Made by a program: the position numbers and the translations under genes. This document shows positions 2,899-56,154 of a stretch of DNA of 64,000 nt, one piece after another. The DNA lies in assembly GCF_036588685.1 (NCBI RefSeq), contig NC_086380.1, positions 76,136,001 to 76,200,000 on the forward strand, read 5' to 3'. The notes under the pieces are model-generated. The model searched no databases. It saw only the letters and a program-made list of their open reading frames with translations, and was not told the origin of the DNA. Source of the DNA: Mytilus trossulus. Lineage: Eukaryota. How positions within the stretch are numbered: the first letter of the stretch is position 1; every line of letters begins with the position of its first letter.

Positions 2899-3120
2899 AA
2901 AAAGTAAAATCACAAAAATACTGAACTCAGAGGAAAATCAATTTGGAAAGTCCATAATCACATGGCAAAATCAAAAAACGAAACGTTTCAAAAACGAATG
3001 GACAAGAACTGTCATATTCCGGACTTGGTACAGGCATTTTAAAATGTAGAAAATGGTGGATTAAACCTGGTTCTATAGCGCTAACCCTCTCACTTTAATA
3101 ATAGTCTCATCAAATTCCGC
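2899..3120 (-). mobile_element. SINE-like insertion (family B) with 5-bp TSD
   Basis: Flanked by TACGA (2894-2898, 3121-3125) and absent from the paralogous flank of copy 7 (~48045). A reverse fragment lies at ~37025-37165. Confidence 0.75.
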
Positions 3121-4444: not shown

Positions 4445-4520
4445 AAGTCACGGTATCGAAAGTGCGATTTGTTTGATTGGTCTATTTCGCTTGTTGCACG
4501 TAGAGTAAATGCTTTAACTT
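4445..4520 (+). other. Remnant of the intronic part of the cassette upstream of copy 2
   Basis: cacggtatcgaaagtgcgatttgtttgattggtctatttcgcttgttg resembles cactgttaggaaagtgcgaatcgtttaaatgatcgatatcgcttgttg in the other cassettes. No exon or donor is seen upstream. Confidence 0.55.
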
Positions 4521-4992
4521 CCACGAACAATAGGAGATTGCTAACTTCTTAGAAATAGTTGGTGTCTTGTTTAAAATGGACTTGCAGTATGAAATTTATA
4601 AAATAAAGCAAGGTTCTTTCAATAAATTTACTGAGTTTATTTATAAAATCGAGTCAAAACCAAAAACACCCACGTACAGGAAAATATAAATTGATAGGAC
4701 GAGAAGAGAAACACCAATGAACCGCACAAACAAAGGACTATCACTGAGCACCATAAATATAGTTTGTCCAATTATGTATCGCATTGATTTCTCCTGTTTT
4801 CAGTCCTGATTAACAGCTATGACCTTCTGAACATTGGTATTCTTATTTTGTACTTTTTTAAAGAGGATATTTTCAATGTAATCATTTCCCACCCAGTGTA
4901 CAAAGCACAAATGTATATCCCTTGCGAAAAGGCAATTATATCATTGTTTCGTTTTGTAGATTATCTCTTACTAAAGAATCTTGTATACCAAC

Positions 4993-6464: not shown

Positions 6465-6897
6465 TAAAAGAGGGACGAAAGATACCAAAGGGACAGTCAA
6501 ACTCATAAATCTACAACAAACTGACAACGCCATGGCTAAAAATGAAAAAGACAAACAGAAAAACAATAGCACACATGACACAACATAGAAAACTAAAGAA
6601 TAAACAACACGAACCCCACCAAAAACTAGGGGTGATCTCAGGTGCTCCGTAAGGGTAAGCAGATCCTCCTCCACATGCGGCATCCGCCGTGTTGCTTATG
6701 TGATTTCAAATCCGGTAAATAGTCTAATTCGGTAGGTCAAATTAATGAAAAGGAAGGGGATTGTAGTTACGACGTAAGGAACATATCCGATATCATTTGT
6801 GAAACGGTTATTCCATAACGGTCAACCAACTCGTGATGGCGTCCGTAAAATTTACGAAGGGACGATTTCAACTTCACCATTTGGAACTCTTGATTAA
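6465..6897 (-). mobile_element. 3' end of a Penelope-like retroelement (RT C-terminus + 3' UTR)
   Basis: The minus strand encodes NQEFQMVKLKSSLRKFYGRHHELVDRYGI, followed by gcttacccttacggagcacctgagatcacccc. Older + strand copies lie at ~3810-3985, 48815-49260 and 59570-59985 (3' flanks of copies 1, 7, 8). Confidence 0.7.
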
Positions 6898-6930
6898 AAA
6901 TCGTTATCTTTTTGGAAGATCTCACGTTTG

Positions 6931-7560
6931 TGACATATATATCAATTATATGGGCATTTTTATAAATTTTCTGTTTACAAAACTTTGAATTTTTCGAAAA
7001 ACTAAGGATGTTCTTACCCCAAGGAGTAGATTACCTTAGCCGTATTTGACACAACTTTTCGGAATTTTGGGCCCTCAATGCTCTTCAACTTTGTATTTGT
7101 CTGGCTTTTAACTGTTTTGATCTGAGCGTCACTGATGAGTCTTATGTATTCGAAATTCGCGTTTGGCGTATTAAATTATAATCCTAGTACCTTTGATAAC
7201 TATTAACACCACTAGGTCGATGCCACTGCTGTTGGACGTTTCGTCCCCTAGGGTATCACCAGCCCAGTAGTCAGCACTTCGGTGTTGATATGGATATCAA
7301 TTATATGGGCTTCTTTTTTTTTAATTTTCTGTTTACAAATCTTTGAATTTTTCGAAAAACTCAGGATTTTCTTACCCCCAGGAGTAGATTACCTTAGCCG
7401 TATTTGGAACCACTTTTTGGAATTTTGGGTCATCAATGCTCTTCAACTTTGTATTTGCTTGGCTTTTTAACTGTTTTGATCTGAGCGTCACTGATGAGTC
7501 TTATGTAGACGAAACGCGCGTCTGGCGTATTAAATTATAATCCTGGTACCTTTGATAACT
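6931..7560 (+). mobile_element. Non-LTR retrozyme-like tandem (~1.75 units, period 359 nt)
   Basis: Direct repeat with hammerhead cores at 7132 (degenerate: GAC>TTC, GAAAT, GUU) and 7491 (intact). Unit size and type I hammerhead fit the retrozymes described in mussels. Confidence 0.8.
7475..7534 (+). ncRNA. Type I hammerhead ribozyme, intact core
   Basis: Stem I tttgat-(ctga)-gcgtca pairs with tggcgt-attaaa. CTGATGA at 7491-7497, stem II GTC-ttatgta-GAC, GAAA at 7511-7514, short stem III AC-gcgc-GT (palindrome ACGCGCGT). GUC cleavage is predicted after 7522. Confidence 0.88.
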
Positions 7561-7990
7561 TTTGTGAATGATCATTATATCGAGCCAATTTAAGTAACTA
7601 TAAGGTATTTATATATTTCTTTCTGGTCGCTTTAGAGTATACTCGACGTGTCAACAAGACGACTCATTTATAAAACGGTATTCACTATGAATGGTTTACT
7701 GTCGGTAGTTTTAAGTCATATACCATTCCAATCTTATAACAAAACGCCGTTCTGCTATTAGTTAACGGATGGTTGTTTTTTTCTTCTTTAAAAAGGAAAT
7801 TGAATCTTCAATTCTAGAATGGTGAACATCTTATGTACAAATTTGCATGCATGAATTGATAAATTGTAACTGCTAAAACTACTCTATAAAATTGGCTTGA
7901 ATACAGAAAATGAAGAAAAAACCTTTTGATTAGAAACGTGAAGAACACATTTCATTTTTATTTACTATTTTTTTTTCCAGAAATCATTCT

Positions 7991-9640
7991 ATGGCATCAA
8001 CTAGTTTCTGTGATCCTTGTTCCGAAGCTGACAAGTCTTTAACAGCAACAAGGTATTGCTCAGACTGTGAAGAAAGACTTTGTACAGACTGTGCAGAATC
8101 ACATTGCAGATTCAGAGCTTTTAAATCTCACCATGTTATCGACCTGTCGTCCATTGGATCCAATATTCTTATGTCCGCGAAGAAACACTGCAATGTTCAT
8201 TCAGAAATGATATTGGATTATTACTGCACAGATCATGAGATCGTTTGCTGTAGAGCCTGCATATCTAGTGAACACAGGGTTTGTCAGAACGTTCTCCCAT
8301 TGGAACTTGCCTCGAAAGATGTAAAAAAGTCTGCACTGTTTAATGATGTTATGGAAGACATAATGCATCTTATTACAACATTGAATGCTTTAGACAATAA
8401 CAGAGAGTCAAACTTACAATCAATAGAAAAATCAAAATCAACAATAACTAAGAAGATCCGAGCAGTGAAATCTAAATTTTTGAAACAAATTGAAGATTTG
8501 GAGCGTGAATTAACGACCACTTTGTCATCTCTCCAACGAAAACATGAAATCGAAATCAACAAACAAAAGCAAGAAATATCGCAAGTCTTGGTCAATGTTA
8601 TAGAAAATAAAAACGAGATGGATTTTTTGAGAGATCATGGATCTAAGAATCAGCTCTTTATATTCCTTCGCCAACAAGTAACAAATATTCATAGTGCTGA
8701 GGCAAAGATTCAGCAGATAGTATCTGATTCACAAGAATTCGATATAACCTTTGACGAAAAGAAAGATGGTAAGCTTGAGTCTCTCGGGTCACTGTCAGAG
8801 TATGTTCAACAATGTCAAGTTCAATACAAACCAAAGAAATTTCAACAAGCCCAGATAAAGGCGGAACCAATGAAAAACATTCTTGGGTTTGAGCAGGATA
8901 CGGAAGTACAACTGAAAACTGGGGAAAAATATGTTCTTTGGGATGTGTCTATCACACATGATAATAAGCTACTCCTCATTAATAAATCGTCAACATATTC
9001 AAAACTGTATGTTTACAGAGACTGTAAAGATTATGAAACAGAGATAACTTTTTCCTCCGCACCTGTTTTTGTTGCTGTGATACCTGGTACGGACAGAGCT
9101 GTTATTACCCTACCTAACGAGGGGTCTATACAATTTATAAATACGACAACGATGACAAAGTCCGACAAAGTCAACATGGGATTTACATGTTATGGTATCA
9201 CTGCTGGACGTGACAGAATTTACGTTGGTGGTCAAGGTGGTACTATCAAAACATTAGACACAAATGGGACAATTCTAACAACGATTCGACAAGGATCTGA
9301 TGAAATTTTCTTCATGGTATACAATGATTTACAAGATCAGTTGATTGTTAGATGTGTTGGTAAACTCCTTTGTATCAAAGTAGATGGAACACTAGTTTAC
9401 AGTAAAGAAGTTTCTGGAATAGCAGAAGTAACACTTGATCGACAGAGGAACATTTATGTGGGCGGTTATGAGACCAACAACATACAAAAAATGTCATCAG
9501 ATGGAAGGATTTGTGAAGAAATGCTAAACAAAGACAATGGCATTGAACGTCCGTATGGAATGTGTTTTAACAATGACTTCACCAAACTGTTTGTTATTAA
9601 TAACGGTTGCAAATCCGTACATGTATTCAAATGCAAGTGA
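7991..9640 (+). CDS. Copy 2: RING-less TRIM-like protein (2 B-boxes, coiled coil, NHL-like six-bladed propeller), 549 aa
   Basis: Intact ORF with CDPC..CSDC..CTDC..H..H (B-box1), CNVH..CTDH..CCRAC..H..C (B-box2), a heptad-rich middle and C-terminal blades (CYGIT, RIYVGG, RPYGMCFN). Acceptor tttttttccag ends at 7980. Confidence 0.93.
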   Translation: MASTSFCDPCSEADKSLTATRYCSDCEERLCTDCAESHCRFRAFKSHHVIDLSSIGSNILMSAKKHCNVHSEMILDYYCTDHEIVCCRACISSEHRVCQNVLPLELASKDVKKSALFNDVMEDIMHLITTLNALDNNRESNLQSIEKSKSTITKKIRAVKSKFLKQIEDLERELTTTLSSLQRKHEIEINKQKQEISQVLVNVIENKNEMDFLRDHGSKNQLFIFLRQQVTNIHSAEAKIQQIVSDSQEFDITFDEKKDGKLESLGSLSEYVQQCQVQYKPKKFQQAQIKAEPMKNILGFEQDTEVQLKTGEKYVLWDVSITHDNKLLLINKSSTYSKLYVYRDCKDYETEITFSSAPVFVAVIPGTDRAVITLPNEGSIQFINTTTMTKSDKVNMGFTCYGITAGRDRIYVGGQGGTIKTLDTNGTILTTIRQGSDEIFFMVYNDLQDQLIVRCVGKLLCIKVDGTLVYSKEVSGIAEVTLDRQRNIYVGGYETNNIQKMSSDGRICEEMLNKDNGIERPYGMCFNNDFTKLFVINNGCKSVHVFKCK

Positions 9641-11095: not shown

Positions 11096-11339
11096 CAGCA
11101 TAACACAGCTAAGTATGCTTTAACACATTTCTGTGTCACTAAACCTTTAAAACCTCAAAACGACAAAAAAACCTCTGCAGTCGCATGTATAATCATGATA
11201 ATTATGTATTGTAATATTTTAGTTATGTCTTTTTTTTATTTTTTAGCTTTTTTAGTTATCAAATTCTCACAAAAAAATATTCGATTTATTGAAAAATCGT
11301 TTTGCATTAAATTTTAAATTTGTTTGATTTATTAAACTA

Positions 11340-11600
11340 GACAATTAACAGCGCCACGTAGTTTTTAAAAATGTCATACATCAAACTTTATCATCCTTAT
11401 ATAATTTGTACATTAAGTTCTAGTATTGTCTTCAAGAACCAGTATAGCAAGTTAAACAGCAGAAAAGTCGTGGTTGATTTTGAATCTGTTGATCTCGTTT
11501 AAATCCAACAGGTAAGTCTTAATTTAGCAGTGTTATTATTTGTTTTGACGACGAGCTAATTTTAGGTTGATATGGTTTAAATCGAAAGTAAATAATTTCA
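11340..11600 (+). promoter_or_regulatory. Putative promoter + non-coding exon 1 cassette of copy 3
   Basis: cagcgccacgtag at 11349, conserved cttcaagaaccag, perfect donor CAG|GTAAGT (GT at 11512) and aaatcgaaagtaaa near 11580. The ETS motif is absent here. Confidence 0.6.
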
Positions 11601-16724: not shown

Positions 16725-18894
16725 AATTTTGACCTACAACATGAAGAATTTAATAATTTATACTGAATATTTTGGTATTTATTGTATTTCTGTTAATCAG
16801 TAGAAAATGGTTTGTTTTAATTTGTAACATACAATCGGGAAGCAACTGTATATCATTTTAGATTTGCGGCTATTGTAAAACAAGGACTATAGTTACCAGA
16901 GGGACAGTCAAACTCATAAATCGAAAATAAACTGAAAACACCATGGTTAAAAATTAAAAGGACAAACAGACAAATGTAAATTTGTGTTGAAGAAACCAAT
17001 TATGAACATAAATTGAAATAAAAACTGCTTTGACATTTTTGTAAAAATTCCTTATATCCAAATATACAGAGACAAAACTAAAACATAACAAATAATACAT
17101 GGTTTACTAAACGTTTTTACTATTTCTAAATTCGTATATTACTTAATATGAGGATATAAATCTTCGTCATAGTCTTAAATACAATTTAATGAACGACTGT
17201 TGGTTTTCCTCTGTTCCAAATGATTCCTAACACTTTTTAAAGCAAATTTCAAAGCTTATATCCTCTAGTAAATTATTATTATGAAATAATTTGTCAAATC
17301 AAAAATACCGTTTTGTGTCAGTTATTATTCAAAATTTAATCTACTTATATATAAGACATTGCATCATAAATATACAATGTAAGATAAACCTCAGAAAATG
17401 TTAATTTTTAAGTTTGTGTCAAGCTGAAAAATCAAAAAAAAGGCAAGGTTGTTCAAGCGTTTTAACAGTTTCGTGTTCATAACCTAAAGGAGTTAATATT
17501 TTGTAATGCAGCCAAAGTGACTAAAATAATTACTAGTTTACCATCCCTGAATTAAACTGAAGTGTAAGAAAAAGTTTCACAGTATGATATGGGTTACTAT
17601 TTTTAGGAAAAGAGAGTCTGATTCATTGATGTATAACACACTGTACTAAAAAGATTGTGCAAATTTAAACATGTGTGTAAAATTTCAATGGATGTGATTT
17701 CCAGAAGATTCCTGCCTACACAAATCTTTCGATGCAAGACTTTTTAATCGAACGCTATGTGATTTTTGTTTACCATCAGTGAATTTGTTTGTTTCAGGTG
17801 ACCACCAATGTGTTTAAACTGTTAACCATACTCTTCTAGAGCATGTGCCTGGTAATTTCGTATCGTTGAATTTGTATTTATCATAGATAGAAACGGGCGG
17901 GTTCTTGAGTTTAATAGTTGCTTTTTTTATTTTGGTTTGATAGGGATATAAGGTAGAAGTTAAACAAACAACATTAGTACGTTTTTGACCATATAGTCCA
18001 TTATTACTCAATAAATTTAGAAATTAATATACAAAATTATTTGAATGGTGAACTTATGCACAGACGTTTTCAAACGTGTAGTCTTTTTTAGTAGCAAGAA
18101 TTTAGTTATACAAAAAACATGAAAAAATACATGAAATCATGAGAATACAATATTAACTTTAGTTACCAATGAAAATGATACAAACAGCCCAAAGTCTACC
18201 AGAGAGGATGAATAATTATTCTCCTACAATTAGACAGGTATCTATGTTCTGTTATGCATCGGTCCGATTCTGCAACAATTGTATATGAATAAGTGGATAG
18301 TATCAAAGTACTCATTGCAACACATATAAAAAAAACTTAAAAAGAACAAAGAAAAAAAAGAAAAAAAAAAGAAAAGAAAAGATGACATTCAATTAAAACA
18401 CTTATAATTGACTGAAAATGAAGGATACGTGGTTTATTCATTTCGTTTTAATATCAAAACAGGGTACGTTTATGCACACTGTTTGGTATTATTTCGTATG
18501 GTATCGTTAAATTTTTGTATTCTTAATTTTTTTAATGAACGTTAACATGGTTAGGTCGATTGTTTTTTTGTTTTTTTTTCAAATTTGGCTATTTTGTTGT
18601 GTGTCTGTCTTTGACTTTCCTCTTTATTTACTACTTGTCCATCTTTTTCTATTAAGGATAAATGAGAAAAAATATTTTAGAGTGAATATAAAATCTACAT
18701 CTTTAAACAAATTTACATTATTGTTTTTTTCTGCATTATACATGTTATAAGACATGTGTCTGTGTCAATATTTCCGTAAATGATAATCGAAAAAACAAAT
18801 ATATATACTGTAGCTGGCATGATTATCTATTGTTATTATTTGGTACTCTAGCAATCAACTCTTTGATTTTTTTAAATTGACCTAGTCGTATTTA

Positions 18895-19145
18895 TTTTTA
18901 ACCAGGAAGTGTAACTAGGCGGATATATATTTAACAGCGCCACATAGTGTTCAAAATCGTCATACATTAAATAAAGATACGGTAACTACGTATTTTTTGT
19001 CTTCAAGATCCAGTATTGCGTATTAGCAGAATTCGTAGTACTGTTCTCATTTAAATCCATCAGGTATGTTTTCTTAGTTTTGAAGTAGTTATTTTAACAT
19101 TAAACTCGGGTTGATAAAATGGACGTTTAAACCGAAAGCAAATAT
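18895..19145 (+). promoter_or_regulatory. Putative promoter + non-coding exon 1 cassette of copy 4
   Basis: ccaggaagtg at 18902, cagcgccacatagtgt at 18935, donor CAG|GTATGT (GT at 19064) and aaaccgaaagc near 19130. Confidence 0.62.
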
Positions 19146-19429: not shown

Positions 19430-19790
19430 ATTATTTTTGATTCCCGCGTAATTGAGAGTCTTATGTAGACGACAAATGCAATACGCGAGTCTGGTGTACA
19501 CAATTATAAGCCTAACATGTTTGATTAGATGTTAAGTATAATGCCACTGCTGGTGGTGTTATGATTCCACGAGGTTTTCACGAGCCTAGTAGTCAGCACT
19601 TCTATGATGACATAAATTATTATTGATATGGTCAGAGTGGAAAAAAAACTTTTAGGAATTTATGGTCCTCAATGCTTTTTAACTTCTAACTTTTTTGGCC
19701 AGAGTAAATGATGAGTCTTGTGTAGCTGAAACGCGCATCTGACAAACATACAAAATGTCAATCCTGGTATCAATGATGAGTTTATTGACA
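19430..19790 (+). mobile_element. Degenerate retrozyme with two decayed hammerheads in the copy 4 intron
   Basis: gagtcttatgtagacga at ~19455 and tgatgagtcttgtgtagctgaaacgcgcatctg at ~19709. The segments gccactgctggtgg and cctagtagtcagcactt match the 7.2 kb unit. Confidence 0.7.
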
Positions 19791-28848: not shown

Positions 28849-30184
28849 TATAAAGAAATATGCAGGTGTTTGTAATGGTGGTTTTGTTGCTATTATGTAA
28901 GATTAATATAGCAATCATGCTCAGTCTTAAAGTAAATATTTGTGATAAAAATCAAATAGGAATTATCTCTTCAACTTATTAATGTAACTACATTCATTCG
29001 TTTTTATAATATACCATAATAATGAGGATGGTCATAACATACAAATGGAAATGTGTCCCCCATGGTACACGAGAAACTTTAATTTCACTCGAGTTTGCGT
29101 TCAGTTTTAGAACCAATGTTTTGAAAATGATTCTTTTATTAAACTTGCATCAAGTAAAATTTCTGAAACTTACATTAAAAGCTCCAACCATTCGGTTGTA
29201 AGTGAAAATGAACGAACTATGCTTTCATTTAGCCGCAAGAAAATTAGTTTTATGATAAAAAACAACAAAAAGAGATATGGTATACAATAAAACCAATGAC
29301 TAAAAATAAAAAATAGTAAGGACTAATTATTTAGTTTTTACATACCAAATCTGCTTAGTTAATTCGAGGTTTTTCGTTTTATTTGTTTGTAGGCTTTTTT
29401 TTTTTTTATAAATATAGAATTAATGTTTTTGTTTGTCTTTTCCCCGAACTGTATACCCCCACCCCCACCCCACCCTCAGATTCATATAGGATATATGTTG
29501 TTGATAGTTTCTCCGCTAACTGTAACGGCTGTAATTTGCCATCATTGCGTATAAATAAAAAGTGAAAAATCAACACGGTAAGGTGAATAATCATACAATA
29601 TTCCTCTTTCAGGTAGTACCTATAAGATCATCTAAGACTGAAGGGAGATAATTTTGTAAAATCAGCCAAACGTTTTACACACGTTATAGTGTTAGGGAAA
29701 TATTAAGGTTCTCAATGACCAAAATGTCAAACTGCTATATATTTATCCATTATTTCCCAAGAAAGTGATTGGTTCAAGTTTTTTTGAAATTTTAATTTTT
29801 TTTCAAACGTTCATAGAACTATAACATGATAAACATTATATCAAAATTATATAAAAATTACACGAGCTAAATTTATTTTAGTCAAAGTAATGGGTACAAA
29901 CTTAATAGATAAAAAAAATATTGCATTGCTGTTTCAGTATTGGAAAGTCGTTAAATTGAATGTTGGCTTTCACGCTTTTCTTTATTAATAAATTTTTAAA
30001 GCATAAAATCGCAAACAAAATAAAATACATCTGCTGCCGCATGCATAATTAACTATTGTAATATTCGGTTATGTCTTTTTTGATTTTTGTCATCAAATTA
30101 TTAGAAAACATTATTTGACTTTAGCATGAAATTGTTATTTTTTCTAATTTATTTTTAACCGAGGTGTCGCAGGATGTAAGACTG

Positions 30185-30450
30185 ATAAAAGTGCCAGGTA
30201 GTGTTTAAATATATCATACATATCTTTATCATCCTTATATAATGTCTACATTAAGTTCTATTATTGTCTTAGTGCTGGCTTCAAGAATCAGTATTGCAAG
30301 TTAAACAGCAAAAAAGTCGTGGTTAATTTTGAATCTGTTGATCTCGTTTAAATCCAACAGGTAAGTTTTCTTAATTTAGCAGTGTTATTGTTTGTTTTGA
30401 CGACTAGCTAATTCTAGGTTTATATGGTTTACATATATGGAAAGTAAATT
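30185..30450 (+). promoter_or_regulatory. Putative promoter + non-coding exon 1 cassette of copy 6
   Basis: Paralogous to 11340-11600, with donor CAG|GTAAGT (GT at 30361). The GC box has degenerated to aagtgccaggtagtgt and the IRF-like site is altered. Confidence 0.55.
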
Positions 30451-39078: not shown

Positions 39079-42000
39079 AAGAAAACTGGCTACGTTTATT
39101 TACGCTCTTTCTTTGAACGCTACTTGGATATTTGTAATAGTTTATTGGCTTTTTTTAAATTTGTCTGTTTTTGACCTTGTCTTTGACCTTGTCTTTGACC
39201 TTGTATTTTACTGAAGTTTGTTATTGTATGTCTATAATTTCGTATTAATGACAAATGAAAAAATAAGAGCGTAGAATGAAAATCTACCTATGTTATTAAA
39301 AATCATGATATCTTTTTTTCTGCACTCAACATGCTTAATGTTCATATGGACCCTTCGGCTTCACTTCCAATTTTACTCTGAGTACAGACAAACCTGTGCA
39401 TCTGGAAAAAGATAAATAAAACTAAAATATATAGTATGTTTTAAAAAATTCAAAACTTAACTGGATTTTGCAGTCCACATGAACCTTGATAGAAAAAATA
39501 TTATAAGCTGTCTGTGTCAATAAATCCCTAAGAATATAAAACCAAAAAATATTCCTGTGCAGCCGGCATAATTATATATTGTTATCATCATTACAATTTT
39601 TCTATATACAACTCTAGCAATAAATAGTTTGATTTAAATATTGAAACTTCATATTTCATGATTTAAAATGTATTTAAATTGTGTGTTTATTTTTAACCAG
39701 GAAGTGTGCTTATTTTGTTAACAGCGCCACGTAGTGTATAAATCATCATACATCACACAGGTGTTTTATTGTTGTCTTCAAGAACCAGAATTACAAGTTA
39801 AACAATAGAACCGTCGTGGTTTTATTCTTAATTAGAAGCTTAACGAAAATTAATCAGGTATGTAATCTAATTTTGTAATATTTTTTTTTATGAAGAACTA
39901 AACTGGCTTAGGTAGATACCGTTAAAACCGAAAGTAAATATTTTATCAATCCTCTGTTTATTCCGTTTATGTTAAGATAGTCACATGTTACTTTAAAAAT
40001 ATTCTGTTTTGTAAATAAATTAATTTGGTTTCAAATGGATATCTTTCTTTTTCTGATTCTTCTTTATGTAATCAATATTCAGGTAAAAATCACTGTTAAG
40101 AAAGTGCGAATCGTATCTTCAATAAGATTTGTGTATTGAATCGAATTCATTTATTTGTAGTTGAGATACTGTTTTGAAATAAAAGAAATAAAGCAAACAA
40201 ATAATATAATACCATACTATTCACGATCCGAGTGCGACACTTGACCACCGAACCTTTTTTTTTTTTTATGTCATCGACGTATCGGGGAGTATTACATTTT
40301 ACAATTGTACGTCTCTACTTCCTTGCGTCCAACAAATATTTTCGTTCACTTATTTTAGTTTGCATCATCCAAGTGTTATGCATCAATATTAATTTGTGAA
40401 ATTTAATGACCCGGCTTCTTTGATATTTTTGTATTGACAAGTGTCTGAAGGATCTCCGATTCGTACGAAATAAGAAGAGGTCTGTAAGAAGAAGCGCATA
40501 TTTCGTTCCCATAGGATTGACGACAATTTGTTGAACAAGTCTACCTCCAAATAAAATAGATATATTGTCACAAGAAAACTGGCTACGTTTGTTTACGCTC
40601 TTTCTTTGAACGCTACTTGTATAATTTTAAAAGTTTATTGGCTTTTTTGAAACTTGTCTGTCTTTGACCTTGTATTTGACCTTGTCTTTGACCTTGTATG
40701 TTACTGAAGTTTGTAATTGTATGTCTATGATTTCGTATTAATGACAAATGAAAAAAATAAGAGCGTAGAATGAAAATCTACCTATGTTATTAAAAATAAT
40801 GATATCTTTTTTTCTGCACTCAACATGCTTAATGTTCATATGGACCCTTCGGCTTCACTTCCAATTTTTCTCTGAGTACAGACAAACCTGTGTATCTGGA
40901 AAAAGATAAATAAAATTAAAATATATAGTTTGTTTTAAAAAATTCAAAACTTAAATGGATTTTGCAGTCCATATGAACCTTGATAAAACAAATATTGTAA
41001 GCTGTCTGTGTCAATAAATCTCTAAGAATATAAAACCGAAAAATATTCCTGTGCAGCCGGCATAATTATATATTGTAATCATCATTACAATTTTTCTTTA
41101 TACAACTCTAGCAATAAATAGTTTGATTTAAATATTGAAACTTCATATTTCATGATTTAAAATGTATTTAAATTGTGTGTTTATTTTTAACCAGGAAGTG
41201 TGCTTATTTTGTTAACAGCGCCACGTAGTGTATAAAATCATCATACATCACACAGGTGTTTTACTGTTGTCTTCAAGAACCAGAATTACAAGTTAAACAG
41301 AAGAACCGTCGTGGTTTTATTCTTAATTAGAAGCTTAACAAAAATTAATCAGGTACGTAATCTAATTATGTAATTTTTTGTTTATGAAGAGCTAAACTAG
41401 CTTAGGTAGATACCGTTAAAACCGAAAGTAAATATTTTAACAATCCTTTGTTTATTCCGATTATGTTAAGATAGTCACATGTTACTTTAAAAGTATTCTG
41501 TTTTGTAAATAAATTAATTTGGTTTCAAATGGATATCTTTCTTTCTCTGATTCTTCTTTATGTAATCGATATTCAGGTAAAAATCACTGTTAAGAAAGTG
41601 CGAATCGTATCTTCAATAAGATTTGTGTATTGAATCGAATTCATTTATTTGTAGTTAAGATACTGTTTTGAAATAAAAGAAATAAAGCAAACAAATAATA
41701 TAATACCATACTATTCACGATCCGAGTGCGACACTTGACCACCGATTTTTTTTTCTTTTTTATGTCATCGACGTATCTGGGAGTATTACATTTTACAGTT
41801 ATATGTATCTACGTCAATGCGTCCAACAAATATTTTCGTTAACTTATTTTTAGTTTGCATCATCCAAGTGTTAGAGCATCATCAATATTAATTTGTGAAA
41901 TTTAATGACCCGGCTTCTTTGATATTCTTGTTTTGACAAGTGTTTGAAGGATCTCCGATATGTACGAAAATAAGAAGAGGTCGACAAAAAGAAGTGCATA

Positions 42001-44651
42001 GTTCGTTCCCATTGGAATGACGACAATTTGTTGAGCAAGTCTACCTCTAAATAAAAAAGATATATTGTCAAAAGAAAACTGGCTACGTTTATTTACGCTC
42101 TTTCTTTGAACACTACTTGGATATTTGTAATAGTTTATTGGCTTTTTTGAAATTTGTCTGTCTTTGACCTTGTCTTTGACCTTGTCTTTGAGCTTGTCTG
42201 TTACTGAAGTTTGTTATTGTATGTCTATGATTTCATATTAATGACAAATGAAAAAATAATACCGTAGAATGAATATAAAATCTACCTATGTTATTAAAAA
42301 TCATGATATCTTTTTTTCTGCACTCAACATGCTTAATGTTCATATGGACCTTTGGCTTCACTTCCAATTTTACTCTGAGTACAGACAAACCTGTGCATCT
42401 GGAAAAAGATAAATAAAACTAAAATATATAGTATGTTTTAAAAAATTCAAAACTTAACTGGATTTTGCAGTCCACATGAACCTTGATAGAAAAAATATTA
42501 TAAGCTGTCTGTGTCAATAAATCTCTAAGAATATAAAACCGAAAAATATTCCTGTGCAGCCGGCATAATTATATATTGTTATCATCATTACAATTTTTCT
42601 ATATACAACTCTAGCAATAAATAGTTTGATTTAAATATTGAAACTTCATATTTCATGATTTAAAATGTATTTAAAGTGTGTGTTTATTTTTAACCAGGAA
42701 GTGTGCTTATTTTGTTAACAGCGCCACGTAGTGTTTAAAATCATCATACATCACACAGGTGTATTACTGTTGTCTTCAAGAACCAGAATTACAAGTTAAA
42801 CAGTAGAACCGTAGTGGTTTTATTCTTAATTAGAAGCTTTACGAAAATTAATCAGGTATGTAATCTAATTTTGAAATATTTTTATGTTTATGAAGATCTA
42901 AACTAGCTTAGGTAGATACCGTTAAAACCGAAAGTAAATATTTTAAAAATCCTCTGTTTATTCCGTTTATGTTAAGATAGTCACATGCTACTTTAAAAAT
43001 ATTCTGTTTTGTAAATAAACTAATTTGGTTTCAAATGGATATCTTTCTTTCTCTGATTCTTCTTTATGTAATCGATATTCAGACAAAAATAACTGTTAAT
43101 AAAGTGCGAATCGTATCTTCAATAAGATTTTTGTATTGAATCGAATTCATTTATTTGTAGTTAAAATACTGTTTTGAAATAAAAGAAATAAAGCAAACAA
43201 ATAATATAATACCATACTATTCACGATCCAAGTGCGACACTTGACCACCGAACCTTTTTTTTTTTTTTATGTCATCGACGTATCGGGGAGTATTACATTT
43301 TACAGTTACACGTCTCTACGTCATTGCGTCCAACAAATATTTTCGTTAACTTATTTTTAGTTTGCATCATCCAAGTGTTAGAGCATCATCAATGTTAATT
43401 TGTGAAATTTAATGACCCGGCTTCTTTGATATTCTTGTTTTGACAAGTGTCTGAAGGATCTCCGATTCGTACGAAAATAAGAGATCGGCAAGAAGAAGCG
43501 CATATTTCGTTCCCATAGGATTGACGATAATTTGTTGAACAAGTCTACCTCCAAATAAAATAGATATATTGTCAAAAGAAAACTTGCTACGTTTATTTAC
43601 GCTCTTTCTTTGAACGCTACTTGGATATTTGTAATAGTTTATTGGCTTTTTTGAAATTTGTCTGTCTTTGACCTTGGCTTTGACCTTGTATTTGACCTTG
43701 TCTGTGACCTTGTCTTTAAGCTTGTCTGTTACTGAAGTTTCTAATTGTATGTCTATGATTTCGTATTAATGACAAATGGAAAAATAATAGCGTAGAATGA
43801 ATATAAAATCTACCTATGTTATTAAAAATCATGATATCTTTTTTTCTGCACTCAACATGCTTAATGTTCATATGGACCCTTCGGCTTCACTTCCAATTTT
43901 ACTCTGAGTACAGACAAAGTTGTGCATCTGGAAAAAAGATAAGTAAAATTAAAATATATGTTATGTTTTTAAAAATTCAAAACTTAACTGGATTTTGCAG
44001 TCCACATGAACCTTGATAGAAAAAATATTATAAGCTGTCTGTGTCAATAAATCCCTAAGAAAATAAAACCGAAAAATATTCCTGTGCAGCCGGCATAATT
44101 ATATATTGTTATTATCATTACAATTTTTCTATATTCAACTCTAGCAATAAATAGTTTGATTTAAATATTGAAACTTCATATTTCCTGATTTAAAATGTAT
44201 TTAAATTGTGTGTTTTTTTTTAACCAGGAAGTGTGCTTATTTTGTTAACAGCGCCACATAGTGTTTAAAATCATCATACATCACACAGGTGTTTTATTGT
44301 TGTCTTCAAGAACCAGAATTACAAGTTAAACAGTAGAACCGTCTTGGTTTTATTCTTAATTAGAAGTTTTACGCAAATTAATCAGGTACATGTATGTAAT
44401 CTAATTTTGTAATATTTTTGTTTATGAAGAGCTAAACTAGCTTAGGTAGATATCGTTAAAACCGAAAGTAAATATTTTAACAATCCTTTTTTTTATTCCG
44501 TTTATGTTAAGATAGTCACATGTTACTTTAAAAGTATTCTCTTTTGTAAATAAATTAATTTGGTTTCAAATGGATATTTTTCTTTTTTGATTCTTCTTTA
44601 TGTAATCGATATTCAGGCAAAAATCACTGTTAAGAAAGTGCGAATCGTATC
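38620..44651 (+). repeat. Four-copy ~1.5 kb tandem array; each unit carries a promoter/exon 1 cassette and a Penelope-like RT fragment
   Basis: ccaggaagtg at 39697, 41191, 42694 and 44224 (periods 1494, 1503, 1530). Donor GT at 39858, 41353, 42856 and 44386. aaaaccgaaagtaaa follows each donor. Confidence 0.93.
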
Positions 44652-50500: not shown

Positions 50501-52264
50501 TATTTAATTCGTTTTCCTCAGTTTTAGTTTGTTACCCCGATTTTGTGTTTTGTCCATGGATTAATGAGTTTGAACAGCAATATACTACTGTTGCCTTTAT
50601 TCATAGCAAATATTAGGATTTTGTTTGTTTTCTTTTGTTTGATAGTGTTTATTGTCCTGTAACTGTTGAAAATGTTAATCTTACAATTTTGAAAAAAAGT
50701 TACCCACATCCGAAAATAACGTTACGGACAGTCTGATTACTTTTTACTTGTAAGTTACGGACATCTTATGCATTTTTTAAAAGTTGGCCTTGCGCTAAAG
50801 TGAAGTCAAAATTTACGAATTTGAAGTGATGGTAGGTGATTTCTTTATTCAAAAAGCCTATCAATATTTACATAGATCATGAAAAAAGTTGCAAAAAGTA
50901 TATTTCGTATCAACTGTCATCTCAACGAGTTTAGAGTCCGCCATCTTGGGCTGTGGGTAACTTAAGTTACCCACGGCCGTTTAAGCACAGTGACAACAGA
51001 CACATTCACATGCATAAGCAACTATATGTCACATTACAGCTTTAACAATGGAAATACAAACCCAAACGACTTAGCTAGCTATTGAAGGCCCCGAAATGAT
51101 CAGATTAATGTAAATATAAATATTTTGACCTTAGTAATTTCGAAAGAACATACAGTATCATGAAAATGTGTAATATCATTAAATCGCAAAAATTGAGTTA
51201 CATAAAAACAAATGAATTCCGGAGAATACATAAGCTTCAGTTACCAAACCCCTACAAACAGCTACAAAAAAACCAAGAAAGCAATTGACTATTCTCCATT
51301 ATAAGACAGGTATATGTGTACAATATGTTAAAGTTCACAACGGTCCTAGTGCTCAACGTTGATGAATATATCGTTACATAGAAATTATCATAGAACTCTA
51401 ATCAGCTCATGTCGAACGAAACTAACAGCCACAAACTGAAAATGGAAGATCTGACATACACTAAAACCACTGTTTGAAAATGGAGTGAGATTTAAGTATT
51501 TCTGATTTTCAAATCAAAACCGTCCACGTTCATTCCAGTTTTTTTTAACTTTTTCGTGTTACTTACAGTTGTGAAACTTCAGTTTTCGACATTTTTTTGG
51601 TGGATTATTTGTAGGCTTTTTATTTGATTTTTAAATATACCCTATATCATTTATTGATGTCGTTCATAAGTATTTTTCGTCTATCGTTTTTATATAGAGA
51701 AGACCGTTTGTTTTCCCGTTTGAATGGTTTTTCACTAGTCACTTATGAGCCCTTTTTAGCTTGCTAAGACTCCGAGTTGAAGACCGTACTTTGACCTATA
51801 ATTGGTTACTTTTACAAACTGGAAATTAGATGGAGAGGTGTATCATTGACAATCATTTTCTTAACAGTATATTTTGATGTTTGTATATCTCCGAACTATG
51901 CCTGTCATTGCCCATCGTTGCGTAAAAATGAAAAGTGACACATATTTTTTTTTTGAATAAACATTGTGGTTAAGTGAATATAAAATATTCCTTTTTTAGC
52001 GATACATTTGTATAACAAACCATGGTATTTTTCAGAATTGGAAAGGTATTTTAAAAATGTTCGCTTTGACCATGTTGACGCCTGTCTGTGCATTTCAATA
52101 AATCCTTAAATCATAAAATCGAAAAAAAAATATTCCCTGCAACTGGCATGAATATCTATAATTGTAATATTTTTTTAAACTTTGTTTTATAAAAACTCTA
52201 GCAAAAAACAATTGTTTTTTAGTGAAAAATCGTTTGACAGGAATATTCAGTTCGTGTGATTTAT

Positions 52265-52546
52265 TTTTAACCAGGAAGTGTAACATGTGTAACTAGGCGG
52301 ATAACAGCGCCACGTAGTGTTTAAAATCGACAAACATCACACAGTTGTTAACGTAGGTTTTACTTCAAGAACCAGTATTTCAAGTTAAACAGTATAACCG
52401 TCGTGGTTTTATTCTTAATCGGCATACTTTACGTAAATAAATCAGGTATGTTTTCTTAAAGTTTTGCAATGGGTTTTTTTTTAACGAAGAGCTAAACAAT
52501 GCTAAACTAGCTTATAAATGCAGATACTATTAAAACCGAAAGTAAA
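52265..52546 (+). promoter_or_regulatory. Putative promoter + non-coding exon 1 cassette of copy 8
   Basis: ccaggaagtg at 52271, cagcgccacgtagtgt at 52305, donor CAG|GTATGT (GT at 52446) and aaaaccgaaagt at 52532. Confidence 0.62.
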
Positions 52547-54740: not shown

Positions 54741-55175
54741 TACTTTTAGCAAACAAAAGGTTGACTGTTGTAATATACAAGACATGTTTGGTGTGTTGTA
54801 TGGATTTGGTCTACAACTGATTTGATTCTGCGTCACTGTTGAGTCTAATGTAGACGTCAAGCGCGCCTAGTGCATACAGCTATACGCATACGTTGTCTCT
54901 AATAAAATTTGAGTTTTGAATCGCGAATTAATTTTTTTTTTGTAGTTTATATAATGTTTTGCAATATGAAAAAACACCAGATATGAAAAATATACCTATG
55001 CAAAAAATATAATTTATGTGCCTATTTTCTATAGTACAATTAGCACATTATTCAATTTTATATCGTACTATTCACAATCCGATTGCGACACTTGACCCAC
55101 TTATCTATTTATATGCCACCGCCATGCATAGGGCATTACTTTTTACAAAAAAATGTTTTCGTTCATTTAATTTAG

Positions 55176-55770
55176 TTTATTCTTAATCGGCAGACTTTAC
55201 GTAAACCAATCAGGTATTTTTTCTGAGGTTTGCAATGGTGTTTTTTTTACGAAGAGCTAAACTAATTCAGGTAGATATGGTTAAAACCGAAAGTAAATAC
55301 TTAAACAATATTTTATTTATTCCGTTTCTGTTAACCTAGTCGCATGCTTTTTTTGTAAACAAATTTATTTGGTTTAAAATGGATAGTAAGGTTGTTTTTT
55401 TAAATCTAATACTTCTTTATGTAATGGATATGCAAGTAAAAATCACTGTTAGGGAAGTGCAAATCGTTTAAAAGATCGACATTGCTTATTGTTTGGTAAA
55501 TGTTTTACTTTTAGCAAAGAAAAGGTTGACTGTAGAATTTTACAAGAAATGGTTGGTGAGTTGCATTGATTTGGTCTACCAACTATTTTTGATTCCCGCG
55601 TCACTGTTGAGTCTAGTATAGACGTCAAGCTCGCCTAGTGCATAAAACAATACAACTAATAAAATTTGTATTTTGAATCGAATTCATTTTTTTTGTAGTT
55701 TAGATAATGTATTGAAATATGAAAAAAAAACACCAGATATGAAAAATAAACCTAAGCAAAAATTATAATA
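55176..55770 (+). repeat. Partial duplicate of the copy 8 cassette (exon 3' end, donor, IRF-like site, start of intron)
   Basis: Matches 52410-52745 joined to 54740-55000. Donor CAG|GTATTT at 55214. It lacks the ETS/GC boxes and the Helentron-type insert. Confidence 0.75.
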
Positions 55771-55931: not shown

Positions 55932-56110
55932 CACCTTAGCCGTATTTGGTACAACTTTTTATTATTTTTTAGAATTTCCGGCCCTCAACGCTCTTCAACT
56001 TTGTACTTGCTTATGCTTTCTTACTGTTTTGAGCATCATTAAGTAGTCTATTGTAGACGGACAGCGCGTCTGGCGTTTCATGTTATAAGCCTGGCACCTA
56101 CTATAACTAT
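55932..56110 (+). mobile_element. Degenerate retrozyme fragment in the copy 8 intron (more decayed cores at ~54820-54875 and ~55586-55645)
   Basis: ccttagccgtatttggtacaact...gctcttcaactttgtac...gtctattgtagacggacagcgcgtctggcgt matches 7390-7560, but the catalytic core is mutated. Confidence 0.7.
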
Positions 56111-56154
56111 TTTGTCTGGTTCAGTTGTTGTCACCTTTGAAAGTTCTCAAACAT

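Follow-up and report, generated by a model that had tools for sequence, protein, structure and literature searches.

The window (the whole 64,000-nucleotide stretch of Mytilus trossulus DNA analysed here) contains eight copies of a B-box (TRIM-like) gene, most of them preceded by a conserved upstream block that ends in a CAG/GT donor. RNA contigs show this block spliced to acceptors, and the junctions that can be assigned belong to copies other than copy 2. Every TRIM-like copy has its own promoter/exon-1/donor block except copy 2 and the broken copy 5. The promoter/exon-1 block is quadruplicated before copy 7, and in copy 1 (L031, approximately 2.5-1.2 kb before the window start) it is broken before the donor, with the ORF cut to 345 amino acids. 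The C-terminal half of the TRIM ORFs diverges faster than the B-box half (dN 0.11-0.18 versus 0.02-0.06), as a variable recognition domain might do. Profile searches for copy 2 recovered no promoter, exon 1, or donor, only an intron remnant (Table 1), and two loose-end motifs from the RNA contigs do not map as exons upstream of it. Because copy 2 has no exon-1 block of its own, a transcript arriving from upstream is the only evident route to its splice acceptor. Judged from the sequence, a hammerhead ribozyme lies on the sense strand in the former intron 1 of this copy, within a truncated retrozyme insertion.

Table 1. Coordinates of features in the window and of the paralogous genes
Feature	Position	Strand	Remarks
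Intron-1 remnant from the TRIM promoter/exon-1 block	4448-4571	+	Profile searches
3' fragment of the intact-frame Naiad family (RT C terminus and 3' UTR)	6465-6898	-	Later, separate insertion
Non-LTR retrozyme insertion	6931-7560	+	1.77 units, 5'-truncated, ends at the fixed 3' point of the family
Decayed upstream hammerhead	7116-7175	+	5 substitutions, two stem II pairs broken, C17U
Bulged hairpin common to the Naiad 5' end, likely RT-binding/start signal	7208-7270	+	Window copy has 3 mutations (7214, 7232, 7249)
Intact type I hammerhead ribozyme	7475-7534	+	Rfam match and reading of the sequence
Predicted cut site, between GUC and U	7522-7523	+	GUC triplet ends at C7522
Fixed 3' end of the insertion, probable start of reverse transcription	7557-7563	+	38-41 nt downstream of the cut
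Copy 2: splice acceptor AG (7979-7980) and intact 549-amino acid B-box (TRIM-like) ORF (7991-9640)	7979-9640	+	
Promoter/exon-1/donor blocks	11314-11519, 18888-19074, 30147-30371, 39683-44392 (four copies), 52256-52456, 55064-55224		Splicing confirmed by RNA contigs
Paralogous copy-2-type genes	G000:C8, about 76251675 and 76420835		Intact ORFs, without recognisable exon 1

The ribozyme has the CUGANGA, GAAA, and UH core elements, the three stems, and the open stem I of the type I hammerheads. The conserved core CUGAUGA is read at 7491-7497 and GAAA at 7511-7514, with stem II formed by 7498-7501 and 7507-7510. Stem III has just 2 bp (7514-7521 and 7515-7520) closing a GCGC loop, and the segment 7514-7521 is a perfect 8-nt palindrome. 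Stem I pairs 7485-7490 with 7523-7528, including two G-U pairs, and is extended by 7475-7480/7529-7534 beyond a 4-nt bulge (7481-7484). The Rfam model Hammerhead_1 (RF00163) matches 7485-7528 on the plus strand over its full length (model positions 1-45 of 45) with 33.0 bits and an E value of 2.4e-4, 1 bit below the gathering score of 34 bits, and it is the sole Rfam family at E ≤ 1 in the window. In the isolated 60-mer the hammerhead is not the predicted minimum free energy fold (-6.3 versus -10.1 kcal/mol, z +1.07). The repeat period is 359 nt at the hammerhead and 355 nt at the 5' end of the insertion, and the distance from the predicted cut to the copy 2 acceptor is 458 nt. The preliminary description of this DNA, which had suggested the Rfam search, read a complete type I fold with GUC cleavage after 7522, a bulged stem I, a palindromic minimal stem III, a decayed partner one 359-nt period upstream, and a position approximately 450 nt before the copy 2 acceptor, all of which agree with the present analysis. 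The substitutions in the upstream hammerhead (7149, 7150, 7156, 7157, and 7163) represent three mutational events; a targeted inactivation of this ribozyme was considered and nothing stands out.

The 44-nt core at 7485-7528 has 9,492 exact copies genome-wide (1.3 Gb) with none for the reversed control, so the hammerhead match is not due to chance, and with this number of identical copies one ribozyme in 64 kb is ordinary. A family search returned 124 matches from 40 scored candidates, the full-length ones being 89-94% identical with the query itself set aside. In the first 30 loci, 96 of the 127 motif matches are identical to the window 60-mer, a count in which overlapping loci enter some copies more than once. 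The unit is 354-359 nt, some copies form arrays of dozens of units, and the family has the build of a retrozyme, whose tandem units are short (150-450 nt), low in GC, and each furnished with a single type I hammerhead. The retrozyme contains no ORF of at least 150 amino acids, and in the flank tables there are no terminal repeats and no target-site duplications evident by eye. Mytilus galloprovincialis is described as having approximately 5,000 such ribozymes in two families of 350-390-nt repeats with abundant circles (Cervera and de la Pena 2020, PMC7229834), and a 375-nt mussel retrozyme is given as an example in Additional file 11 of PMC4918200. The ribozyme of this example is near-identical to that of the window, and its flanks correspond to the second retrozyme family of the present genome, for which a 28-nt marker has 1,129 exact matches (loci L181-L210). 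The near-identical ribozyme and the repeat architecture identify the window ribozyme and its family as the known, published mussel retrozymes, as had been anticipated. The portions of PMC7229834 and PMC4918200 covered here name no helper motif.

Older, decayed retrozyme-like copies (66-75% identity) lie in the window at 19541-19783 and 55933-56114, and searches with a divergent retrozyme-like query and with an older Naiad fragment lead to the same main families. A third hammerhead repeat, approximately 550 nt long, has the same ribozyme layout with its 2-bp palindromic stem III; the Naiad hairpin is missing from it, and its fixed end lies at (TA)n. This repeat is present at L260 (7855-8841) and also in L250, L252, L254, and L243, it adjoins Penelope-like elements (PLEs) with a C-terminal endonuclease (EN) in 5 of 42 GIY-YIG loci, and it may represent a retrozyme served by another helper.

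The window insertion recurs in two paralogous segments, located 0.1 and 0.3 Mb away, as a 275-nt form with a single ribozyme. The 5' part of this form shares derived bases with the upstream unit of the window and the 3' part with the downstream unit, and because of this the 1.77-unit form is shown, at the level of the sequence, to be ancestral, with one unit lost by recombination in the lineage of the two paralogous segments. The Naiad fragment next to the retrozyme is absent from both segments and was therefore inserted later. A single twin-priming event giving the fragment and the retrozyme head to head was considered and rejected, both paralogous segments having the retrozyme without the fragment. 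All three copy-2-type ORFs are intact, with dN/dS of 0.15-0.22 for copy 2 versus each paralog over the first 290 codons, so the three genes may be expressed through the ribozyme-bearing intron, and neutrality of the window ribozyme is to be taken as likely rather than certain. The dS of approximately 0.11 between copy 2 and the paralogs is above the flank divergence of approximately 0.055, which hints at gene conversion.

RNA ends at the predicted cut are seen at the level of the family. In one of two raw-read runs (the stranded run X21, not X24; both from other individuals), 77 of 176 family molecules end at 7164 (7523 minus 359), in the direction of sense-RNA 5' ends only. In the upstream register, position 7164 directly follows the cut and is equivalent to 7523, and the ends pile up here because reads that start at the cut and enter the next unit align only at this position. 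Clipping at the window mismatch 7163 could add to the pile; 61 X21 reads cross 7163 on the same strand, and there is no pile in the opposite direction or in run X24. Ends at 7522/7523, put forward earlier as a check, are thus found as family-level ends at the equivalent base and not as ends specific to this locus. Cleavage as a dimer, also raised for the short stem III, is possible and not required, a cloned mussel repeat cleaving at approximately 0.1/min at 37 °C (PMC7229834) and monomer cleavage being usual for invertebrate type I motifs as summarised in PMC7761336.

The 3' ends of the retrozyme insertions are fixed. A mid-unit query without the terminus gave 30 loci with 25 distinct scored elements, 24 of which have a visible 3' end, and in 23 of the 24 this end lies 0 to +8 nt past GATAACT (21 of 22 when the three copies of the window insertion are counted as one); the 5' ends are scattered across the unit. 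The second retrozyme family behaves in the same manner relative to the hairpin described below, with 29 of 30 loci stopping before it and one running into it. The fixed end follows the cut by only approximately 40 nt. From a linear monomer released by cleavage, no more than this length could therefore be templated, and longer insertions would need a circle or an uncut multimer.

The Naiad fragment in the window encodes the C terminus of a reverse transcriptase (RT) and led to full-length elements. One of these (L067) has an intact 1,000-codon frame with an N-terminal GIY-YIG, CxC, DKA, a KR-rich block, and RT motifs; L066 contains a 3,369-nt (3.37 kb) tandem unit, and partial tandems (pLTR) occur in L066-L068. 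Compared with the Naiad diagnostics in section 6 of PMC8557442 (Craig et al. 2021), the GIY-YIG motif (seen by eye at approximately residues 135-150) is N-terminal to the RT in one frame, and the L067 translation has the CxC, DKA in place of DKG, the KR-rich block, and the lengthened CX-CxxC finger; the body is within the 3.4-4.4 kb range and in partial tandem. Pfam places RVT_1 at 709-854 of the L067 protein with an E value of 5e-4, below the cut-off, and gives no GIY-YIG match. The L066/L067 elements match the Naiad Penelope-like elements and are assigned to them by these motifs. A second Naiad family has approximately 53% protein identity to the first, and its 3' end is present in the window at 2899-3120 on the minus strand, abutting a TA microsatellite, (AT)n, at 2865-2895. 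Upstream of second-family Naiads (L227, L228, and L232, oriented positions 550-578) there is a 27-nt piece matching the retrozyme 3' terminus, which is missing from the adjacent L227 repeat.

The first 63 nt of the intact Naiad are identical at 55 positions to the retrozyme segment placed directly after the fixed end, with an alignment score of 86 compared with 34 for the best of 200 shuffles and 26 after masking. Beyond this hairpin, the likeness of the retrozyme to the Naiad is limited to a weak terminal motif, so the shared hairpin could reflect ancestry or another role. The best 30 loci of the 63-nt segment all run on into Naiad-type sequence, and nearly all are preceded by the Naiad's own 3' end. 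At the start of the second Naiad family the same fold is seen with an extra stem inserted, and the second retrozyme family also carries the hairpin. A tabulation of the pairs by anchors, covering two families of Naiads and two of retrozymes, shows canonical pairing throughout the 13 outer and middle pairs; in four of these both partners have changed and in two a single partner, and the window copy breaks one. The fold z scores are -3.7, -2.6, and -4.2, compared with -1.0 for the window copy. The paired changes come from these four families; a covariation score from five related rows is reached by 1 of 500 shuffles, in a comparison where the structure was derived from the same rows and the control ignores relatedness. 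In 44 of 52, 25 of 39, 62 of 72, and 12 of 22 distinct flanks of the four families, the insertion stops ahead of the first pair by 4-8 nt, counts that leave out 26, 1, 1, and 2 flanks, respectively, running into the hairpin; the mapping is anchored on the terminal 20-mer, and the exact-match extension blurs the ends by point mutations and microhomology.

The search for this hairpin in other elements covered 30 of 149 GIY-YIG matches, among which the C-terminal-EN PLEs have no hairpin or retrozyme similarity except for inserted retrozyme copies, and 12 further GIY-YIG stretches (11 with a C-terminal-EN frame by motif), which have no hairpin match. Two Naiad families were seen in all, and as the search covered 30 of the 149 matches and the 12 stretches, a closer helper may exist. 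Other identities for the hairpin, an HDV-like ribozyme or an antisense hammerhead, were considered by eye and rejected: there is no P1 partner and no Rfam match at this place, and the G-U-type changes fit the plus strand.

The retrozyme and the Naiad therefore have in common the hairpin sequence, the paired changes within it, and the geometry of the insertion ends, and the Naiad frame is intact; a shared cis element together with equal insertion-end geometry is what characterises a non-autonomous Naiad partner. The explanation we prefer, and consider probable, is that the hammerhead belongs to a broken 1.77-unit mussel retrozyme and is likely a neutral passenger in the TRIM-like gene cluster, the family being copied by the Naiad RT, which would bind the shared hairpin and start 4-8 bases upstream of it. 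The preliminary description had cited a Penelope-like RT as the presumed mobiliser of retrozymes, and the Naiad-shared hairpin and end geometry support this idea. Tandem arrays would be transcribed, cut after GUC, and circularised, as published for mussel, with the cut position here taken from family-level ends in one run. The Naiad protein would then bind the 63-nt hairpin, nick AT-rich DNA, and prime internally approximately 40 nt downstream of the cut, where the fixed end is observed and the priming is proposed by analogy with PAc, the Poseidon PLE of Anolis. In that system the RT is described as nicking AT-rich DNA, starting inside the RNA downstream of the hammerhead, and needing approximately 55-60 nt of RNA beyond the start (PMC11167929); the retrozyme presents in order the cut, approximately 40 nt, the end, and the 63-nt hairpin. 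The template for the longer insertions would be a circle or uncut multimer, and copying for variable lengths would give the 5'-truncated partial tandems that are observed. The window copy then decayed, with mutations in the upstream ribozyme and hairpin, and the paralog lineage lost one unit by recombination, as the shared derived bases show.

A more general proposal, to which we incline on balance, is that the mussel retrozymes, circular and equipped with a ribozyme, parasitise a helper that has none. A portable 63-nt hairpin would bind the Naiad RT and fix the start of copying, so that whatever RNA circle carries it would end up as tandem genomic DNA. For each retrozyme family in a genome there would be a PLE clade as its partner; the 550-nt family, which has no hairpin, lies beside C-terminal-EN PLEs.

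The hairpin might alternatively be shared by descent or have another role (promoter, processing, or stability), with a different RT, for example that of a hammerhead-associated Neptune/Poseidon-type PLE, mobilising the retrozyme. C-terminal-EN PLE families with long open frames are present in the genome, the 550-nt repeat with its similar ribozyme and no hairpin lies beside such elements, and a 2026 preprint links Xenopus retrozymes to pLTRs (10.64898/2026.07.22.740005). However, the C-terminal-EN elements examined are without hairpin or retrozyme similarity, inserted retrozymes aside, and the same spacing from end to hairpin in the retrozyme and the Naiad is not predicted by a promoter or stability role, and we regard this alternative as unlikely. 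The active-locus definition in the same preprint, two complete hammerheads, bears on whether the window locus is itself a source of circles of approximately 359 nt, made through dimer cleavage by its pair of palindromic stem III motifs. The two ribozymes do flank exactly one unit, and the intact palindrome is predicted to form an 8-bp duplex of -13.3 kcal/mol. The upstream motif is decayed, however: two of its stem II pairs are broken, it carries C17U, and its palindrome is impaired (heteroduplex -7.1). The Naiad-type hairpin of the window copy is also mutated, and the private base 7458 of this copy occurs in 0 of 704 reads of X21 and 1 of 159 of X24, both from other individuals. With only one hammerhead intact a 359-nt circle is unlikely to be made from this locus, and its acting as an active source through dimer cleavage is very improbable indeed.

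For the host gene, the alternative to a neutral passenger is a co-opted regulator. Copy 2 would then be spliced to an exon 1 lying further upstream, and the hammerhead in the intron would cut the pre-mRNA and limit copy-2 output or read-through. Fast intronic ribozymes can abort processing, and exons may stay tethered. Copy 2 and its two paralogs, all without the exon-1 block, keep intact ORFs of 549, 551, and 565 amino acids; neither the window nor paralog B has a change in the downstream ribozyme, the last approximately 100 nt have no private change in the window, and a single intact ribozyme is the outcome in both lineages. Set against this, four RNA runs from other individuals, in which absence is weak evidence, give no coverage at 7600-7973 and no contig with the copy 2 5' UTR. 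A splice joint into 7981 is absent among the joints listed, and the assignable junctions link the exon-1 block to the acceptors of other copies. Selection on the downstream ribozyme was considered and nothing stands out, with one of approximately 13 mutational events in the retained copies falling in the 44-nt core compared with approximately two expected. The palindrome is mutated in paralog A, the published cleavage rate given above is slow, and one copy per 64 kb is ordinary for so abundant a motif. Neither the above-neutral conservation nor the host pre-mRNA transcription of a domesticated intronic ribozyme is seen, within the limited power of these comparisons and of runs from other individuals. 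The earlier suggestion that any pre-mRNA from upstream would pass through the ribozyme holds for the geometry, copy 2 having no exon-1 block, and no read or contig in the four runs represents a read-through transcript. The further suggestion that cleavage limits read-through or competes with splicing is not supported, with no such transcript seen in these runs and no conservation beyond neutral expectation, and we consider regulation of copy 2 by the ribozyme improbable.

With the neutral passenger retained as the likely reading of the window hammerhead, what is new is the fixed 3' end and the hairpin shared with the Naiads, the ribozyme and the family being already known. Section 9 of the review PMC7761336 states that retrozyme repeats show no conserved motif pointing to an autonomous element, and which enzyme spreads animal retrozymes has been an open question. 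No published account of a link between retrozymes and Naiads was found in a search that lay outside most subscription papers, Repbase entries, and several supplements. With a candidate helper whose frame is intact, a structured 63-nt signal for which nature provides compensatory variants, and a mapped putative start, this question comes within reach of a PAc-type assay. If the proposal is correct, the hairpin would be the first candidate RT-binding RNA element for the Naiads, which are highly abundant in bivalves, and the system would test whether a telomerase-related RT copies a circular template.

The intronic hammerheads of amniotes, which are isolated and highly conserved, resemble the window motif in being on the sense strand within an intron-like region; the window motif differs in belonging to a set of thousands of recent copies and in showing no trace of selection. 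The non-LTR retrozymes of M. galloprovincialis, as far as described in the sources above, have the same type I hammerhead, 350-390-nt AT-rich tandem repeats, thousands of copies, and two ribozyme families, and there is no difference in kind, the fixed 3' end and Naiad-shared hairpin being added here. Naiad PLEs share with the retrozyme the 63-nt 5' hairpin, the end-to-hairpin spacing, the 5'-truncated partial tandems, and the AT-rich junctions. They are 3.4-4.4 kb long, code for EN-RT, and have no canonical hammerhead, whereas the retrozyme is apparently non-coding, approximately 356 nt, and hammerhead-bearing, with little else in common. PAc (Frangieh et al. 2024, PMC11167929) has the same order of hammerhead cut, internal RT start, and approximately 60 nt of required RNA; it is autonomous, of another clade, and has a protein-assisted ribozyme with no RNA ends seen at the cut, and the likeness drawn here is one of layout. 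A further parallel is the description of Xenopus retrozymes as pLTR derivatives (bioRxiv 10.64898/2026.07.22.740005), where the retrozyme is likewise a non-autonomous PLE partner with similarity at the PLE termini. There the match is to the pLTRs of vertebrate PLEs, invertebrate links being outside that study, whereas the proposed mussel helper has no hammerhead and matches the retrozyme in a single hairpin only.
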